Shown here piece after piece: positions 3,172 to 46,983 of a stretch of 64,000 nt of DNA (position 1 is the stretch's first letter; each line of letters begins with the position of its first letter). Made by a program: the position numbers and the translations under genes. The DNA comes from Chromatiaceae bacterium (lineage in GTDB: Bacteria > Pseudomonadota > Gammaproteobacteria > SZUA-140). The DNA lies in the NCBI GenBank assembly GCA_003232725.1, contig QIJH01000218.1, forward strand, positions 3,429-67,428, in the 5' to 3' direction. The notes under the pieces were generated by a model. It did not search any database and was not told the DNA's origin. It worked only from the letters and a program-made list of their open reading frames with translations.

Positions 3172-3248
<77 letters not shown>

Positions 3249-10991: not shown

Positions 10992-11113
10992 CCACCGCAT
11001 GCGCATCATTAAACTTTATCAATTCGCGTGCGATATAGGTATAATCGCTCGCAAGCGGCTCACGGCCACACAGGTCAACGAATATAATATTTGCCGCACC
11101 GCAAGAGAAAGAG

Positions 11114-21005: not shown

Positions 21006-21016
21006 TAGTAAACAGC

Positions 21017-21186
21017 TAGTAACTATTCAGTTCACTCCTGAAATTTGTCATTTCTGCATTGAAAAATGATCATTTACACCTGTAAACTCATATTTTTCGC
21101 CTTGCATCCGAGGGCATAAAGAAACTGCCAAATTTCAGCAGCAATCTGAATGACATGGCTCTCTTTCACTATGCTGAATAGTTACA
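21017..21186. repeat. MITE-like inverted-repeat element, long copy (about 170 bp)
   Basis: 5' end tagtaactattcagttcactcctgaaat and 3' end tatgctgaatagttaca are shared with the element at 46408-46479. The termini are inverted repeats of each other (gtaactattcag / ctgaatagttac). Intergenic, between ctpA and yibQ. Confidence 0.6.
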
Positions 21187-21212
21187 ACAGCTAAAATAAA
21201 TTAACATCAACC

Positions 21213-36942: not shown

Positions 36943-37491
36943 ATGCCTGGAAACAATCATAAAATAATATTCACTGGCCCTGTGGGCGCAGGAAAGACAG
37001 CAGCAATTAGCGCCATTAGTGATATTGCCGTTTTAAAAACGGATGAAAATGCACAGGACATGACCAAGAAACGCAAGCAGACAACAACCGTAGCGCTAGA
37101 TTATGGGCTATTAAAACTAGGGGAAGGGGAAGGGGAACGCATTCACCTCTATGGCACACCCGGCCAGGAACGTTTCGACTTCATGTGGGACATATTAACC
37201 AATGGTGGCCTTGGCCTAATCCTACTACTTGACAACTCGCGCTCAACCCCTTTTAAAGACATGAGTTTTTTTCTTAACGCATTTCGTGATTTTATTTGCG
37301 ATAACAAAATGGTCATTGGGGTTACGCACATGGAATACAACGAAACATCAAAAATAGAGTCGTATCATCAACAGTTACATAAACATGGCATCAAAGCACC
37401 CATACTAGAAATTGATGCGCGAGAAAAAAACGATGTCGAAACGCTAGTCAAAACACTTCTTTACTCACTTGACCCATGGCTGGGGCAGTAA
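36943..37491 (+). CDS. small Ras-like GTPase, MglA-like
   Basis: 182 aa. P-loop KIIFTGPVGAGKTAAIS; switch I Thr (TTTVALDYG); switch II HLYGTPGQERF, like MglA's TVPGQ variant of DxxGQ. Size and organisation like MglA/CvnD-type GTPases. No clear canonical NKxD. Confidence 0.7.
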   Translation: MPGNNHKIIFTGPVGAGKTAAISAISDIAVLKTDENAQDMTKKRKQTTTVALDYGLLKLGEGEGERIHLYGTPGQERFDFMWDILTNGGLGLILLLDNSRSTPFKDMSFFLNAFRDFICDNKMVIGVTHMEYNETSKIESYHQQLHKHGIKAPILEIDAREKNDVETLVKTLLYSLDPWLGQ

Positions 37492-38177
37492 TGAGTCAAT
37501 ACGAACTGATCGATACAAGGTTTGTCTTACCATCACCCGCAGGCACATATTACGCCATATCAAACCATCAAGAAGAGCGCTCCAGAGGGCTGCTACTTGC
37601 TTTAATGACACAAGCAAACAGTCAAAGAATATCCACAGAGACGCTTTCGATTTGGCTAGACGATGACAACATTGAAACGTCATTGGCACTGCTTCACAAG
37701 ATTCAACAATTAGGCTGGCTTAGACCAGATGATGAACAATCATCGGCCCCGACCGGGGCACTTGAAGAAATAATACCACCGCTACTGGCAACATTATGCA
37801 ACACAGAAAAAACACTACTTGCCGATCACCAGGGCTTTACACTCGCCGCTCACGGATTTACTCACGAAGCAGCCGAAGAGCTATCGGCTCTCAGTGCAGA
37901 CCTCATCGCTCTGAGATTACGGCACGGAAGTTTGCTCACTAAAAACCTTAAACTTAATACGCAAGCCATCGGCCTTATTGATGCCGCAGGCAATAGCCAG
38001 CTAGGGTTCTGGCCACTGCATATTGGCAAGCACTGCTTTACATTGGTAATGAGTGGCATACCGCAATTTAATCAAACCAGTTTTACCAATTTAATTTGGC
38101 TACTAACGACTCGTTATGGATCAAATGACAATGCTGCCAATTTGTCAATTCACGAAATATTTTACACAGATAAATAG
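37491..38177 (+). CDS. hypothetical protein, possible tandem roadblock/longin-like partner (translationally coupled to GTPase)
   Basis: ATG overlaps the GTPase stop (TAATG). 228 aa. Second half (LLATLCNTEKTLLADHQGFTLAAHGF...AIGLIDAAGNSQLGFWPLHIGKHCFTLVMSG) has a roadblock-like alternation. Confidence 0.45.
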   Translation: MSQYELIDTRFVLPSPAGTYYAISNHQEERSRGLLLALMTQANSQRISTETLSIWLDDDNIETSLALLHKIQQLGWLRPDDEQSSAPTGALEEIIPPLLATLCNTEKTLLADHQGFTLAAHGFTHEAAEELSALSADLIALRLRHGSLLTKNLKLNTQAIGLIDAAGNSQLGFWPLHIGKHCFTLVMSGIPQFNQTSFTNLIWLLTTRYGSNDNAANLSIHEIFYTDK

Positions 38178-38239
38178 ACTGAGCGACAACTTATTCAATA
38201 TCATCTACCACAAAAATTTTGAAACAAGGAGTCAATATA

Positions 38240-38602
38240 ATGCGAGCTGACATTTTAAATTCTATTCTATCTGAGTTGAACGGCACTTCAGCTGAAATAG
38301 AAGCATCAGCCATCTTATCGACAGATGGCCTCATGATGGCATCAATGCTGCCTGCTGGAATGGATGAAGATCGAGTGGGTGCAATGGCTGCGGCCATGCT
38401 CTCGCTCGGCGATAGAACATCTGAAGAACTCGCACGCGGTGGACTTGAACAAGTACTGATAAAAGGAGAAAAAGGCTACGTTTTGATGACGCATGCGGGT
38501 GATGAATCAGTACTATCAGTACTTGCCAAACCAAGCGCGCGCCTTGGGCTAATATTTTTAGATGTAAAACGTGCTGCAGAATCAATTGAGAAGCTGGTTT
38601 AA
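38240..38602 (+). CDS. Roadblock/LC7 domain protein (MglB-like)
   Basis: MRADILNSILSELNGTSAEIEASAILSTDGLMMASMLPAGMDEDRVGAMAAAMLSLGDRTSEELARGGLEQVLIKGEKGYVLMTHAGDESVLSVLAKPSARLGLIFLDVKRAAE is a textbook Roadblock/LC7 signature. AAGGAG RBS 8 nt upstream. Confidence 0.78.
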   Translation: MRADILNSILSELNGTSAEIEASAILSTDGLMMASMLPAGMDEDRVGAMAAAMLSLGDRTSEELARGGLEQVLIKGEKGYVLMTHAGDESVLSVLAKPSARLGLIFLDVKRAAESIEKLV

Positions 38603-38626
38603 ACCAATCACGACAGGAAAACTCAC

Positions 38627-39097
38627 ATGAAAGACATGATGCCTGACAATATTTCCGGCGAGTACCAAGAACATCTATTCAGCTACCATGATGGTACTCA
38701 GCGAAAAGCCCTTTTCACCAACATCGAAACACAACTACCAGAAGGCCGCCTGATTGTTTCTCGCACAAATACCGATGGCATCATTATTGATGTAAACCAG
38801 CCATTTATTGAAATGTCCGCTTATCATAAAGATGAGTTAATCGGCCAACCTCATTATATTCTTCGCCATCCAGATATGCCTGCCGCCGCATTTAGCGATC
38901 TCTGGAAAATGGTTCAACAGCGAAATAAATGGCATGGATACGTCAAAAATCTTCGCAAAGACGGTGGCTTTTATTGGGTATATGCGACCGTTATCGCAAA
39001 CATTCGGAAGGGTGACATCACTGGCTTTACATCTGTTCGCCGCCGTGCCTCGCGCGCTAAAATTAATGAAGCCGAAATTCTTTATCAAACTTTATAA
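38627..39097 (+). CDS. stand-alone Aer-type (FAD-binding) PAS domain protein
   Basis: RLIVSRTNTDGIIIDVNQPFIEMSAYHKDELIGQPHYILRHPDMPAAAFSDLWKMVQQRNKWHGYVKNLRKDGGFYWVYATVIANIRKGDITGFTSVRRRAS closely parallels the Aer N-terminal PAS (GQPHN.VRHPDMP.AAF.D.W...G.PW.G.VKNR.K.G..YWV.A.V.P). No transmembrane or output domain. Confidence 0.8.
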   Translation: MKDMMPDNISGEYQEHLFSYHDGTQRKALFTNIETQLPEGRLIVSRTNTDGIIIDVNQPFIEMSAYHKDELIGQPHYILRHPDMPAAAFSDLWKMVQQRNKWHGYVKNLRKDGGFYWVYATVIANIRKGDITGFTSVRRRASRAKINEAEILYQTL

Positions 39098-39880: not shown

Positions 39881-41008
39881 CTATTGCTTAGATGCCTCTT
39901 TTTTAGAGTCGCGCAACCGCTGAAGTTTTTCAAGTATACGTTCCGCCCGACCAATATGCTCTAGCGCCTGCTCGTTGTCGGGTGCCAGTGCTAGCGCATT
40001 TTCCCAGGTACCTATTGCCTTCATATACTGTCCCTCTCCGTAATACTCGACACCCAGGGCAATACTCTCTTTCACCTGTTTATCCAGAAGAAAACTCAAC
40101 TGCTGTGCAAGCTCAATCTCACTCTCATTCAAATTACCTAACAACTTCAACCTGACAACATAATCTAATGCCCTAGTCAGCTCATTATTATTGACAGCCT
40201 TAAGCAAAGACACATTGAGAATTTTTTGCATCTTCCGTCTACTTTCAATCACAATTTGTTGCTGTCTGCGCTCATTTTCCACCTGGGACTGTAACTTTTC
40301 ATTCTCGATTTCTTGCTGTTGTTTCGCCAATAGCAGCTGACTCTCCACGACTGTTTGCTTAAGCTCGCCTATCATCGGCACTGGATTAAGCTGCCAGGCA
40401 AGGCTAAGCAACTCTTCCGCATGGAGGAAATCATCCTGTTCCAAGGCTGCTCGTCCATGTTCAGCAAGCAATTTAGCAACTTTCTTTGATTTATCTTTAT
40501 CTCTTTTCCAGCGGCCCTCTTTTAGCCAACTACCTGGGGTAATCAACGCCAACTCTTCCTGAACACTAATCGTATTACTCAACCACTCCGCTTGCATCAC
40601 TAACAAGTCCAATTCCAGTGCCGCAACCCGAATATTCTGTTTAAAATGCAGCGCCTGAAATGCTGAGTTAATCTTTTCACTATCTGGAATATTATTTAAT
40701 GCGGTTTGGTAGTATCGCTTGGCACGATACCACTCTCCTGCCTTCTCAAGCGCCCTGCCCTCCTCCAGTGTCTGCTGCTCATATATAACTGCCTGCTTAT
40801 CAATACCAGCGATTAACGCATTCACACTTGAATAGTCAGCGTGCGACTCAGGCACATGAGAAAGCACCACTTGCGCTTGTGCATACCGATCCCCCTCGAC
40901 AAGAGAGTCCACCTTTTCTAATACATTAGACGAACGCGCATCCATATACGCACAACCCTGTACAAATATCACCAACAAAATGAGAAAGGCTAATTTCACA
41001 TTTTTCAT
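39881..41008 (-). CDS. TPR-repeat lipoprotein
   Basis: Signal peptide with lipobox (LILLVIFVQGC). Multiple TPR-like repeats (AQ..LS...Y..AL, GEWYRAKRYYQTALNN, GQYMKAIGTWENALALAPDN). 4-nt overlap with the upstream cyclase gene. Confidence 0.65.
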   Translation of the reverse strand: MKNVKLAFLILLVIFVQGCAYMDARSSNVLEKVDSLVEGDRYAQAQVVLSHVPESHADYSSVNALIAGIDKQAVIYEQQTLEEGRALEKAGEWYRAKRYYQTALNNIPDSEKINSAFQALHFKQNIRVAALELDLLVMQAEWLSNTISVQEELALITPGSWLKEGRWKRDKDKSKKVAKLLAEHGRAALEQDDFLHAEELLSLAWQLNPVPMIGELKQTVVESQLLLAKQQQEIENEKLQSQVENERRQQQIVIESRRKMQKILNVSLLKAVNNNELTRALDYVVRLKLLGNLNESEIELAQQLSFLLDKQVKESIALGVEYYGEGQYMKAIGTWENALALAPDNEQALEHIGRAERILEKLQRLRDSKKEASKQ

Positions 41009-42477
41009 GTCGATACGGATACGTCGCCAGTATTCACAACCGTCGATATTGCATCATCGATCATCGCCTGCTGTTTTTCATCAACACCGCTCACATGGTA
41101 AGTCACCAGCGCTTCTTTTTTTCCTTTTAGTGAAATTTTCTTAAAGCGAGTACTAACGATACCCTGAGATTGCAGTGTAACATTCAGTTCATCACTAATT
41201 AGAATTTCGCCAGCATCCGCCGCAGAGGCAAGGCGTGATGCAGTATTAACCGCATCACCAACGACCGTATAGTCCATTCGCTCGGCAGCGCCCATATTAC
41301 CAGCCAGCATCATGCCACTATTAATACCAATTCTAAAACGAACTTGCGTCAAATTATCATTCGCCCTCTGGCGGTTAACTATTTTAACTAGCTTTTGAAT
41401 CGTAATCGCACATGCAGCCGCATGAAAGCTATGCTTGGCATCATCCTCCGGCACACCAAAGACAAGCATCGCACAATCGCCTATGTATTTATCAATATGC
41501 CCACCATAGCAATGTGCTGCCTGCGCAATAATACTAAAGTACTCATTCAGAAGACTATTCACCTGCTCCGGATGTAGCTCTTCCGAAAGCCGCGTAAAAC
41601 CAACGATATCTGCAAACAAAACACTCGCCTCAACATGATGCCCTCCCAACTTCACCTGGTTCAGGTTAGACAATACCGCCTTAGCTACTTTCGGTGAAAC
41701 GTAACGTGAAAATGTCTGCTCCACTTGCTCTTTACGTAACAGCCCTTCCGTCATTTCATTCATCGACTGCATCAGTGAACCCAACTCATCTTTGCGCTGA
41801 TCATTAAGGCGAACATGATAATCACCAGCCGAAATTGCACGGCCAGCATTAATCAATTGATGTATAGGGCGAGTTAAACGCTTACCCAATATAAAAGATG
41901 CTATAAAACCCAGAATCACTAACAACAATGTCGCGCCACCTACCGTGCGAATGGTCTCTTGCTGTGCCAACGTTCTTAAGCGTTGATCAAAAGTAATGAG
42001 CACATAACCTGTCGTCACATCCTTAAAAAACACCGGCTTGAAAAATGAAACCATATCAAGCGGCTCAGGAGCAACGCTATTTTCCTGCCATTCCAGTTTA
42101 ATTACACGCCCTAAGGCAGTGGCAATACGGTGGTCGTCCGGCACTGCACCCTTTTTCACCACCAGCTCTTTGTTCTCATTGTAAAGAGCTGCGCCAAGAA
42201 TCCCAGCTTCACCTGCAAGACTGTTCACCACAATCTCAAGATTAAGGTGATCATTGGCTAATAAGGGTTCACGGGAAAAGCCGGCCATCAACCTTAAAAC
42301 CGTATTTCCCGACTCACTCACCTGCTGCTCAAGAATATTACTTTGGTTGTGGACAATGAACAGCCCCAACAAACTCATCCCGCAACTAATCAATAAAGTA
42401 AAGACTAATGAGAGTTTATAGGCAATAGGGAAGTATGCCGGCAAAAATGCTGTCAGATTTTGGCGTAACTTTTTCAT
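41005..42477 (-). CDS. membrane sensor adenylate/guanylate cyclase (2TM periplasmic sensor - HAMP - class III cyclase)
   Basis: Two TM segments flanking a ~150 aa periplasmic region, HAMP (ILGKRLTRPIHQLINAGRAISAGDYHVRL), CHD cyclase domain (VLFADIVGFTRLSEELHPEQVNSLLNEYF...IGDCAMLVFGVP...RIGINSGMMLAGNMGAAERMDYTVVGDAVNTASRL). Confidence 0.85.
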   Translation of the reverse strand: MKKLRQNLTAFLPAYFPIAYKLSLVFTLLISCGMSLLGLFIVHNQSNILEQQVSESGNTVLRLMAGFSREPLLANDHLNLEIVVNSLAGEAGILGAALYNENKELVVKKGAVPDDHRIATALGRVIKLEWQENSVAPEPLDMVSFFKPVFFKDVTTGYVLITFDQRLRTLAQQETIRTVGGATLLLVILGFIASFILGKRLTRPIHQLINAGRAISAGDYHVRLNDQRKDELGSLMQSMNEMTEGLLRKEQVEQTFSRYVSPKVAKAVLSNLNQVKLGGHHVEASVLFADIVGFTRLSEELHPEQVNSLLNEYFSIIAQAAHCYGGHIDKYIGDCAMLVFGVPEDDAKHSFHAAACAITIQKLVKIVNRQRANDNLTQVRFRIGINSGMMLAGNMGAAERMDYTVVGDAVNTASRLASAADAGEILISDELNVTLQSQGIVSTRFKKISLKGKKEALVTYHVSGVDEKQQAMIDDAISTVVNTGDVSVST

Positions 42478-44128: not shown

Positions 44129-45319
44129 ATGAAGGCCAAAGACCGCCGAATACAGGAACTGCGTGACACCATTACCGAGCTTTCACCGACCGAAGCGTAC
44201 GAGCTACAACAAAATGGTGCCACCTTGATCGACGTACGTGATAACGAAGAAGTTGCACAGGGCAGCCCAATTGGCGCACTACGTCTGGGGCGCAGCTTCC
44301 TTGAGCTCAAAATCGAAGAGCAGATCCCAGACACCGACCAAACCTTAATCATTATGTGTGCGGGCGGGATGCGTTCACTGTTCGCTGCCGATGGCCTGCA
44401 ACGCATGGGCTACAGCGATGTACGCTCGGTTGCCGGAGGCTTTAGCCACTGGAAAACAGAGGCACAGCCGTTTGAAATGCCGCGCATGCTTGACGCCACC
44501 GCGCGTGAGCGTTATGCCCGCCACCTCTCAATCCCCGATATTGGCGACAAAGGCCAGCTCAAACTACTCGACAGCAAGGTACTGCTGATCGGTGCCGGTG
44601 GCCTCGGCTCACCCAGCGCCTATTATCTAGCTGCAGCAGGTGTCGGTACCCTCGGCATCATCGATGATGATGTGGTGGACCGCAGCAACCTGCAGCGCCA
44701 GATTCTGCACACCGAAGATCGCATCGGCATGCCCAAGGTTGAATCGGCACGCATTGCGCTGGAAGCACTCAACCCGGACGTCAAGGTTGTCGCGCATCAA
44801 ACCCGTATCGATAGCAGCAATGTAGAAGCGCTCTTTGCCGATTATGACGTCATCGTCGACGGCTCAGACAACCTGCCCACCCGTTACCTGATCAACGACG
44901 CCTGCGTAAAGCTTAAAAAGCCCAATGTACACGCCGCCGTCTACCGCTTTGAAGGGCAGATCACTGTCTTCTGGCCAGATTACCAGGGCGACGTGCGCGG
45001 CTCCTGTTACCGTTGCATGTTCCCTGAGCCACCACCGCCAGAACTCGCGCCATCATGTGCGGAGGCTGGCGTACTGGGTGTGATGCCGGGTCTCTTTGGC
45101 CTGCTACAGGCGGTTGAGACAATCAAGATTCTACTCGAAATCGGTACACCACTAGTTAACCGCATGTTGCATTACGATGCACTTAGTGGCGAGTTTATGG
45201 AGATGAACGCCAAGGCCAACCCATCCTGTCGCCATTGCAGCGACGGTGCGGTGTTTCCTGGCTATGAAGACTATGCACAGATCTGCTCATCAACACCGCC
45301 GCCATCTGACGACAAATAA
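44129..45319 (+). CDS. E1-like adenylyltransferase of ThiF/MoeB family with N-terminal rhodanese domain and C-terminal CxxC...CxxC
   Basis: N-terminal rhodanese (active Cys in IIMCAGGMRS), then ThiF/MoeB Rossmann (VLLIGAGGLGSPSAYYLAAAGVGTLGIIDDDVVDRSNLQRQILH, active-site Cys in PSCAEAGVLG). Zn motifs CYRC and CRHC. Domain order is reversed relative to MoeZ/MOCS3. Confidence 0.85.
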   Translation: MKAKDRRIQELRDTITELSPTEAYELQQNGATLIDVRDNEEVAQGSPIGALRLGRSFLELKIEEQIPDTDQTLIIMCAGGMRSLFAADGLQRMGYSDVRSVAGGFSHWKTEAQPFEMPRMLDATARERYARHLSIPDIGDKGQLKLLDSKVLLIGAGGLGSPSAYYLAAAGVGTLGIIDDDVVDRSNLQRQILHTEDRIGMPKVESARIALEALNPDVKVVAHQTRIDSSNVEALFADYDVIVDGSDNLPTRYLINDACVKLKKPNVHAAVYRFEGQITVFWPDYQGDVRGSCYRCMFPEPPPPELAPSCAEAGVLGVMPGLFGLLQAVETIKILLEIGTPLVNRMLHYDALSGEFMEMNAKANPSCRHCSDGAVFPGYEDYAQICSSTPPPSDDK

Positions 45320-45325
45320 GCAAAC

Positions 45326-45355
45326 CCATCGCCACGTTAAATAGCGCGGCGATGG
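45326..45355. terminator. hairpin between convergent genes (8-bp stem ccatcgcc/ggcgatgg)
   Basis: Inverted repeat with 14-nt loop. No strong U-tract. Confidence 0.35.
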
Positions 45356-45364
45356 TCTTCTCAA

Positions 45365-45862
45365 TCAATCCTTGTTTCTAACCGTCTCTACGCCAAAAAA
45401 TAGCACCATCTGATCGCCAATCGCTGGCAATGCAAAGTTCATATCAAAATCTGAACGCTTGAATTTAGCAGTGACATCAAAGCCACACACGTACTTCTCT
45501 TTTTTTAGGGTCCAGCGGGTGGACACCACAATGAATACTTTCCACTTCCAGCACAGCATGCTTTGTCACACCCAGGATGGTTAAATCACCCTAGGAGCCA
45601 TCTTGCCTCCTTTATGAAACTCAACGGTCTTCGCTTGATAGGTGATCGCCGGAAACTCCATCGCATTCAGAAAGTCGATTGAACGCAGGTGGTCGTCACG
45701 TTTCCCCATGCAGGTATAAACGGACGCCGCATCGATCACAATATCAATCGAGCCTATGCTCGCCTTTCGATCCATCGTGCCGCACAATGCGCTCGCGCCT
45801 ATTGACGCCCTATTCCCCTTATGAAGGCGGAACAGGTTAAAAATAGACCGCTTACTCTGCAT
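45365..45862 (-). pseudogene. yceI: YceI-family (polyisoprenoid-binding) protein pseudogene: N-terminally truncated, at least two frameshifts
   Basis: Three frame pieces: ...IDAASVYTCMGKRDDHLRSIDFLNAMEFPAITYQAKTVEF; GDLTILGVTKHAVLEVESIHCGVHPLDPKK; KEKYVCGFDVTAKFKRSDFDMNFALPAIGDQMVLFFGVETV. Joined, they reproduce the YceI fold order. One shift falls in an A7/T7 run (45497-45505). The N-terminal signal-peptide region is absent. Confidence 0.65.
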
Positions 45863-46327
45863 CTAACGATAATATTTTTGCCACTCGTCTTTCGTGATTT
45901 TATACAGGACATGCTCTCTAAGGGGGTTACCCTCTGGAATAATAGGATGTTCAAAATTATCACCGGTGTCTGTCATTCCCAGGCGCGTCATCACTTGCCA
46001 TGATTTTTTATTGGTGACAGATGCAAACGAATAGAGCTTATCGAGCCCTAGCTCAGTGAAGGCAAACCTCATCGCCTCTTTAGCTGCCTCTGAGGCATAG
46101 CCACGCCCCCAGAATTCACTTCTCAAACGTCAACCAATTTCGACACAGCGCGATACTGGCAAGTCGTAGGTAGGCTTGTGCAGCCCGACAAAGCCGATGA
46201 ACTCTCCATCCACAATGGTTTCAGCAGCCCAGAGCCCCCACGATCTCTCTGTTATAAGCCGCTTTATTTTTTCAGCCATGGCATCACTCTCTTCACGGCT
46301 CAAAGTATTGGGGTAATACTTCATCAC
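45863..46327 (-). pseudogene. GNAT N-acetyltransferase (RimJ/RimL-like) interrupted by a single in-frame TGA at a conserved Trp position
   Basis: The 65-codon piece (..SWGLWAAETIVDGEFIGFVGLHKPT...CVEIG) and 87-codon piece (RLRSEFWGRGYASEAAKEAMRFAFTELGLDKLY...) are contiguous in the same frame, separated only by TGA where the EIGW.L motif expects Trp (TGG). Confidence 0.7.
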
Positions 46328-46407
46328 CTGTAACTACTCAGCGAGTAGTCAAAATTAACAGTGACTGCTCAGCTAACCCATCAACTCCCAGCATCTCATA
46401 AAAAATT

Positions 46408-46479
46408 TAGTAACTATTCAGTTCACTCCTGAAATCTGAATAGTTATATACCCATCTTCCATTATGCTGAATAGTTACA
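46408..46479. repeat. MITE-like inverted-repeat element, short copy (72 bp)
   Basis: Same 28-bp 5' end and 17-bp 3' end as 21017-21186. The interior is reduced to a second partial TIR copy (ctgaatagttata). Confidence 0.6.
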
Positions 46480-46911
46480 AAATTTATTATGCGCTACCCC
46501 GACAACATACTCTGTTTTATCTTCCAAGCACCCCTGTCAACTCGTAAATAATTTAAAGAGGAATGGACAGCGACGCTCCCGGGTTTCGCTTGCGCTCAAC
46601 CCAGGCTACACATATCAAATACCGTCATTCCGGCCAATAAGAATGGTGGGGGGGTGCCGGGATCAGGGTAAGCTGATCTCTGGTCCCAATCAATTCCAGC
46701 ACAAAACTTGATGAGCACTCGCAATAACACACCAATAAAAACTTAAACCTACTTGTTTTGAATGTAGCTGAGTGCTAGTTTAACGAAAAGGCCATCTATT
46801 TTTGAGCGGCGTAAAAATGCCCTAAATATACAATGTATGGCTGTCATATATCACAACCACACACGGCTGCATATCAACCGCTAATTCACTTAGCGATAGA
46901 GGAGTATCAAA

Positions 46912-46983
46912 TTGGATCTATTAATAGCAATCATCATCGTTTGGATTGGCTGGCTAATATTCCGACGCAAAGAAAAAAAGTAG
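46912..46983 (+). other. candidate small hydrophobic peptide (23 aa, TTG start)
   Basis: GAGGAG SD 7 nt upstream of TTG. Encodes (M)DLLIAIIIVWIGWLIFRRKEKK*, one TM helix plus basic tail, reminiscent of type I toxin / small membrane peptides. Unverified. Confidence 0.25.

Follow-up and report, generated by a model that had tools for sequence, protein, structure and literature searches.

The YceI-like periplasmic polyisoprenoid- or lipid-binding proteins (PF04264), represented by E. coli YceI (1Y0G), Thermus TT1927b (1WUB) and PDB entry 5IXG, and the PA3944-type GNAT proteins (PDB 6EDD) are the closest described counterparts of the two genes considered here. The former are matched by the intact YceI orthologue of a related genome, L010, with E-values from 3e-33 to 1e-18, and the latter are matched over the full length by P0001 (E=2.7e-49), a protein that is itself the best match of the GNAT sequence at our locus. 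Further points of comparison are the contingency genes with homopolymer tracts of Neisseria, Haemophilus and Campylobacter, MITEs and the adjacent deletions mediated by insertion sequences, and the GNAT genes carried as integron cassettes. The window, by which we mean the whole stretch of 64,000 nucleotides that was analysed, carries at this locus a gene of each of the two protein families, and both depart from their described counterparts. The yceI copy retains its orthologous position beside thiF but differs from the known proteins in that its first ~57 codons, signal peptide included, are missing and in that it carries two frameshifts and a stop, so that it would be unable to form the closed beta-barrel. 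The GNAT copy differs from the PA3944 type in that its N-terminal ~33 residues are gone, it is broken at an invariant Trp and it lies outside any cassette array. We consider it very probable that this interval holds the remains of two genes, neither of them functional, which a rearrangement left behind at a variable junction of the chromosome. The features of the locus are as follows.

44129 to 45319, plus strand: intact ThiF/MoeB-type adenylyltransferase with an N-terminal rhodanese domain (Pfam ThiF 6.3e-82, Rhodanese 2.6e-14).
45326 to 45355, unstranded: GC-rich hairpin between the convergent stops of thiF and yceI (inverted repeat I6 with a terminator-like minus-strand match).
45365 to 45779, minus strand: yceI pseudogene remnant, codons ~58-195 of a 195-codon gene, with stop TGA at 45365-45367.
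45500 to 45506, minus strand: A7 tract, seen as T7 on the plus strand and longer by one A (+1) than the A6 of L010, an insertion that brings reading back into the original frame.
45590 to 45602, minus strand: first yceI frameshift, the junction of a 4-bp deletion, aligned as GATGGC----TCCTAGGGTGA vs GATGGCGACAGCCCATGGTGA, with gap placement ambiguous by a few bases.
45780 to 45862, unstranded: filler of 83 nt that separates the stop of GNAT from the yceI breakpoint, matching neither yceI orthologues nor the flanks of GNAT homologues.
45863 to 46329, minus strand: GNAT pseudogene remnant (Acetyltransf_3, PA3944/RimJ-RimL-like), residues ~33-188 of 188 aa, with stop TAG at 45863-45865.
46130 to 46132, minus strand: premature TGA at the position of the invariant Trp (TGG) in the EIGW motif.
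46717 to 46981, unstranded: start of the conserved right-hand block common to L009, L010 and L089 (BLAST synteny).

The YceI-like coding sequence lies on the minus strand and can be read only by switching among three frame segments, which when joined match the Pfam YceI profile with E=5.4e-22 over positions 38-147 of 150. Membership of the family is indicated both by this profile match and by the conserved position, convergent after thiF, that the gene shares with 10 relatives; the RDDHLRS motif and the C-terminal strands are kept. What a functional YceI has in addition, namely a complete open reading frame and an N-terminal signal peptide, is absent. The intact orthologues begin MKKLSL...ASA, and in comparison with them the window copy has lost ~170 nt at its 5' end, corresponding to ~57 of 195 codons, with the start codon and signal peptide included; BLAST homology of the remnant stops at 45775-45779 in eight relatives and at 45747-45750 in L093 and L094. 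The DNA was aligned with the intact orthologues of L010, L011 and L012, which placed the 4-bp deletion (GATGGC----TCCTAGG) near 45596/45597, where there is no homopolymer. Beside it, a TAG at 45591-45593 remains in frame after repair of both indels, and the repaired translation reads S* ahead of GDLTILG. In the A tract, the alignment column is CCT-AAAAAAG vs CCTAAAAAAAG, the run being A6 in the closest orthologue and A5 or interrupted in the others. The gene thus carries three or four independent disabling lesions, of which the 5' truncation with loss of the start codon is one. The idea that the -4 and +1 indels form a function-preserving compensating pair was rejected, because the original frame meets a stop four codons past the deletion and the TAG persists in the repaired frame.

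The GNAT-like frame, also on the minus strand, runs from 46324 to the terminal TAG and is broken once, by the internal TGA. When this stop is read as Trp, the translation matches PF13302 (Acetyltransf_3) with E=2.7e-27 from profile position 25 of 138, and PF00583 with E=7.2e-12; the late profile starts of both GNAT (25/138) and YceI (38/150) therefore hint at absent N-termini. A search of a large protein collection returned 1674 GNAT homologues at E<=1e-10, nearly all of them 186-190 aa long, with P0001 at the top (83% protein identity). At the DNA level, comparison with L001-L004 gave one 455-nt HSP of 84% identity that spans 46329-45875 and begins 97 nt into the homologue gene, which means that ~33 codons are missing; in the protein alignment the first Met of the window copy corresponds to homologue residue ~35. 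Upstream of 46329 there are in-frame stops and no similarity to the lost part of the gene, and no usable ribosome-binding site was found ahead of the internal ATG. The Trp of the E[IV]GWRL motif is present in all ten aligned homologues, and the stop of the window falls at exactly that column: L001, the closest homologue, has TGG there and the window has TGA, a single G-to-A change (surrounding DNA GGTTGGCGT vs GGTTGACGT). The GNAT remnant has, moreover, three private changes at otherwise invariant alignment positions, vs 0-1 in its eight nearest homologues. It is a member of Acetyltransf_3 by profile, without the full-length fold and open frame of that family, and its disabling lesions are two, the 5' truncation with start codon loss and the TGA.

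These results bear on a preliminary description of the same DNA, which had presented yceI and GNAT as adjacent pseudogenes. That classification is upheld by the lesions, as are the statements that YceI is readable only by joining three frames and that one of the shifts sits in the T7/A7 run; the two halves of the GNAT gene do belong together, since both align to one protein within a single HSP. Other statements need amendment. The signal-peptide end of yceI is missing as described, with a loss that is far larger and reaches to 45779, and the TGA does replace the Trp of EIGW, at 46130-46132 rather than 46127-46129. The claim that GNAT was intact except for this TGA does not hold, the first ~33 codons being gone as well in comparison with homologues of 187-188 aa, and with it falls the picture of one lesion per gene. 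The comparison with orthologues that the description had proposed, made with 10 related metagenome genomes, found intact yceI genes of 193-195 aa, against which the lesions of the window stand out as three or more.

Three shorter GNAT entries (153-159 aa; P0089, P0036 and P0020) start from the same Met and raised the possibility that a 5'-truncated GNAT is a natural short form, which was ruled out. For P0089 and P0036 (153 aa; L169 2900-3000 and L174 2900-3000), the DNA ahead of the annotated start encodes, in frame, the full N-terminus of a ~187-aa protein, so that both are gene-calling artefacts. The third entry (159 aa; L176 2440-2560) has its own nonsense change, TGG to TAG at the Trp of LRQW, a motif near the N-terminus, after which the gene caller restarted at the internal Met. 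The L176 gene, in a cassette-like context, is an independent pseudogenisation of the same family.

Related loci were fetched by means of the intact ThiF, which converges on yceI and serves as a conserved left anchor (92-96% protein identity to L009-L012 and L089-L096), yielding 12 close relatives, all of them uncultured gammaproteobacteria known from MAGs or metagenome contigs. A sequence of the same species was not among the matches: exact-sequence look-ups with ThiF, the 93-aa ORF, the 87-aa GNAT C-terminal ORF and a 150-aa neighbour came back empty, and the best protein matches are 82-83% identical. An intact yceI of 193-195 aa occupies the same convergent position in 10 of the 12, that is, in all whose contig holds the whole gene; the contig of L092 ends within yceI, and L009, the closest relative (96% ThiF identity), is without yceI and has only ~78 bp from thiF to the next conserved block. 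The hairpin between the convergent stops is probably a terminator common to thiF and yceI. In the relatives, the next gene past yceI is a conserved membrane-protein gene of 275-298 aa, followed by variable content. Both flanks of our interval are collinear with the relatives, and the 937 bp between them (45780-46716) are unique to this genome among the compared loci, as judged by BLAST synteny; the GNAT is therefore foreign to the locus, and none of the 12 related loci has a GNAT there. The genes do not form an ancestral pair: yceI, whose product is a periplasmic polyisoprenoid-binding lipocalin, is native, and GNAT is foreign.

The region from yceI to the conserved block is an indel hotspot. 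Its content differs in every relative (L009 9202-9280; L010 9957-11929; L089 6850-8332; L090 6862-9990): both yceI and the membrane-protein gene are gone from L009, an additional ORF of 183 aa is present in L010, L090 has an unassigned ORF of 567 aa, and in L011, L090 and L094 an acyltransferase-like gene follows instead. In L092, an insert of ~150 nt, palindromic, lies between thiF and yceI. Short stretches of the unique DNA, 45785-45814 and 46577-46630, have matches in intergenic DNA of the relatives, where they occur in either orientation and at places that are not homologous; the first recurs in L094 (8182-8210) and L090 (9850-9822), and further matches fall in L090 9934-9987, L091 4261-4303 and L010 ~11000-11044. 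These short sequences may represent a lineage-specific REP-like element. As repeat families of the window itself they were discarded, 45785-45809 and 46582-46609 each being found once in it.

Other observations concern the surroundings. On the plus strand at 46912-46983 there is a mini-ORF of 23 codons, predicted to be hydrophobic ((L/M)DLLIAIIIVWIGWLIFRRKEKK), with a GGAG-like ribosome-binding site ahead of it. The mini-ORF is kept in L009 (9478-9549), its DNA block is kept in L010 and L089, and the product may be a small membrane peptide. Upstream, the cluster at 36943-39097 includes a small Ras-like GTPase (36943-37491) and a Roadblock/LC7 protein (38219-38602) that together resemble an MglA/MglB pair, and beside them a PAS-domain protein, a HAMP adenylate/guanylate cyclase (41005-42477) and a GAF protein make up a signalling cluster.

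The unique DNA upstream of the GNAT remnant contains a small MITE, with a sister copy elsewhere in the window.

46330 to 46350, unstranded: short palindrome (I5) containing the 12-mer GTAACTACTCAG (46330-46341), which resembles the MITE terminal repeat with one mismatch and abuts the end of GNAT homology at 46329.
46402 to 46486, unstranded: MITE copy of 69 bp (46410-46478), whose 12-bp terminal inverted repeats, GTAACTATTCAG/CTGAATAGTTAC, are perfect and which is flanked by the 8-bp target-site duplication AAAATTTA.
21019 to 21185 (21011 to 21193 with its duplications), unstranded: sister MITE copy of 167 bp with perfect 12-bp repeats and an 8-bp duplication AACAGCTA.

The 69-bp copy has a third internal repeat at 46436-46447. 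Terminal inverted repeats, a target-site duplication, multiple copies and no coding capacity together identify the element as a MITE, and its GTAA start and 8-bp duplication presumably recall the ends of the IS66 family. The terminal repeat was found in none of the 88 other loci searched. With described MITEs and IS-mediated adjacent deletions the window shares two copies that have both inverted repeats and duplications, and a repeat-like end placed exactly at the gene break; it differs from them in that a parent insertion sequence or transposase was not found in it. The role of the MITE in the GNAT truncation is circumstantial, because the lone 12-mer at the break has one mismatch and no target-site duplication.

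As regards the source of the GNAT gene, its nearest homologues (L001-L004) lie on short, repeat-broken contigs of small genes in the same orientation, each followed by an attC-type imperfect palindrome (TAACAAGGCCCAT...ATGGGCGACGTTAGC), and are on that account integron cassettes. Clear attC sites lie at L001 640-770 and 1350-1460 and at L002 645-760, and these GNAT genes have as neighbours a dCMP-deaminase cassette and a second GNAT cassette. L005-L008, with their small, unrelated genes in one orientation, may likewise be long arrays of cassettes. Other GNAT homologues have ordinary chromosomal contexts. The window copy differs from integron GNAT cassettes in several respects. On inspection, no R''/R' pair or matching palindrome was visible in the 83 nt past its stop; no integrase domain was present in the 35 window ORFs scanned; and its flanks are core genes collinear with the relatives instead of an array next to intI. 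A cassette origin is thus inferred only from the relatives, because no attC remnant was recognised beside the window gene. We offer only tentatively, as a reading that is rather unlikely in its full form, that the fragment might be a stray cassette gene outside an integron, lodged at an indel hotspot and clipped by an undescribed IS66-like MITE family active in this deep-sea gammaproteobacterial lineage.

The yceI and thiF block is 86% identical to L010, the remnant being about as similar to its orthologues as the intact neighbour gene is. Pairwise dN/dS is 0.13 for GNAT against L001, which indicates that most of the GNAT divergence arose under selection and that inactivation is recent; for yceI it is 0.12 against L010, only slightly raised over the 0.09 between L010 and L089, so that this loss also appears young. 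When the yceI changes are polarised with outgroups, 16 non-synonymous and 13 synonymous changes fall on the window branch vs 4 and 12 on the L010 branch, a difference that is not formally significant (Fisher p=0.066); one of the window changes turns a Gly that is identical in L010-L012 into Cys. The preliminary description had called these early-stage inactivations, which is apt in one sense only, that of the remaining similarity and the low pairwise dN/dS of 0.12-0.13, as each gene has by now accumulated several lesions. Overall, this is ordinary, recent gene decay and not a genetic switch.

The lesions, the synteny and the foreign origin of GNAT are established by these comparisons, and from them we infer the following order of events, the part of the MITE included. 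This genome would have lost ~170 nt from the 5' end of yceI along with the genes on that side, and in their place there would have come 937 bp (45780-46716) of DNA, foreign or repetitive, that included the 5'-truncated GNAT, whose own truncation may have been caused by insertion of an element into the gene followed by deletion or by recombination between element copies. Once free of selection, yceI would have gained the 4-bp deletion, the adjacent TAG and a +1 slip in the A6 run, and GNAT its TGG-to-TGA change. No working protein is expected from either remnant, since each is without an in-context start codon, lacks a promoter-like site and retains only part of the fold.

The alternative that the genes are intact in the organism, and that the A7, the TGA and the two junctions are sequencing errors or chimeric joins at repeats, deserves the most attention among the competing explanations, although we regard it as improbable. 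A +1 in a homopolymer is a classic error type, MITE repeats adjoin one of the junctions, and the sequence apparently comes from an uncultured lineage, all close relatives being MAGs or metagenome contigs. Nevertheless, an artefact would have to account for five or more independent lesions that differ in kind and all fall within 1 kb (the -4 deletion, the TAG, the G-to-A change and two truncations), both flanks are collinear with the relatives, and the other 23 A7/T7 runs of the window leave long ORFs unbroken. The raised non-synonymous changes, too, fit a real relaxation of selection. The surrounding genes (miaB-phoH-ybeY-corC-lnt, a LolA-like gene, ubiE/ubiJ/ubiB and hslU) are core housekeeping genes with unbroken ORFs, which indicates that the assembly is not riddled with frameshifts. 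Even if the A7 or the TGA proved to be a sequencing error, this would not change the verdict that both are pseudogenes.

Slightly less probable again is co-option, in which the remnants would have acquired a new function, for example through the 93-aa ORF at 45581-45862 or as an antisense or small RNA. That ORF is uninterrupted over 93 codons and has its ATG immediately past the GNAT stop, which is what gives the idea its appeal; against this, its first 28 codons are filler DNA without homologues and its exact sequence has no match on record. As for an RNA, Rfam gave no match in the region above chance, the one hit being a chance-level miRNA match over the MITE hairpin, and at the gathering threshold the only structured RNA is a tRNA-Met at 3172. 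No promoter-like site adjoins either remnant.

The preliminary description had also suggested that the homopolymer could be a phase-variable switch, slippage in the A tract turning yceI on and off as in a contingency gene, and this we find hardly credible. The window does resemble the contingency genes in having a frameshift within a coding poly-A run, and the -4 and +1 indels total -3; it differs from them in that the gene is destroyed in other respects as well, with a tract that is short and unconserved, and in that expression signals are absent. Removal of one A would leave a gene that still has no start, no signal peptide and ~57 codons fewer, together with the -4 frameshift and the in-frame TAG, and since a repair of the tract cannot restore a gene that lacks its 5' end, a switch is excluded: the other lesions outlast tract repair, whereas in a phase-variable locus tract length alone toggles an otherwise intact gene. 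A run of A7 is in any case short for an efficient slippage tract, the 10 intact orthologues have only A5-A6 or interrupted runs that are ordinary Lys codons, and upstream of the yceI remnant there is no promoter-like site. Finally, recoding (decoding of UGA as Trp, or readthrough, in GNAT; programmed frameshifting in yceI) has a negligible probability of yielding functional proteins here: UGA followed by C, as in the window, is a leaky context in some bacteria and Trp is the residue expected at the GNAT TGA, but TGA is used normally as a stop in the window itself (in the yceI remnant, for one, as in its orthologues), GNAT lacks its first ~33 codons and a usable ribosome-binding site before the internal ATG, and the shifted yceI segments meet stops in the alternative frames.

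The reading as two gene remnants at a rearranged junction has its significance mostly in annotation: both should be labelled as pseudogene remnants, and not as genes, frameshift candidates or phase-variable loci. For the biology of this uncultured lineage, the thiF-to-lnt junction emerges as a recurrent gain-and-loss spot that a small MITE with clean target-site duplications may be shaping, and cassette-type GNAT genes appear to reach non-integron sites. Should the stray-cassette proposal be true, the locus would provide a concrete case of cassette DNA leaking into core chromosome junctions via MITE-mediated rearrangement.
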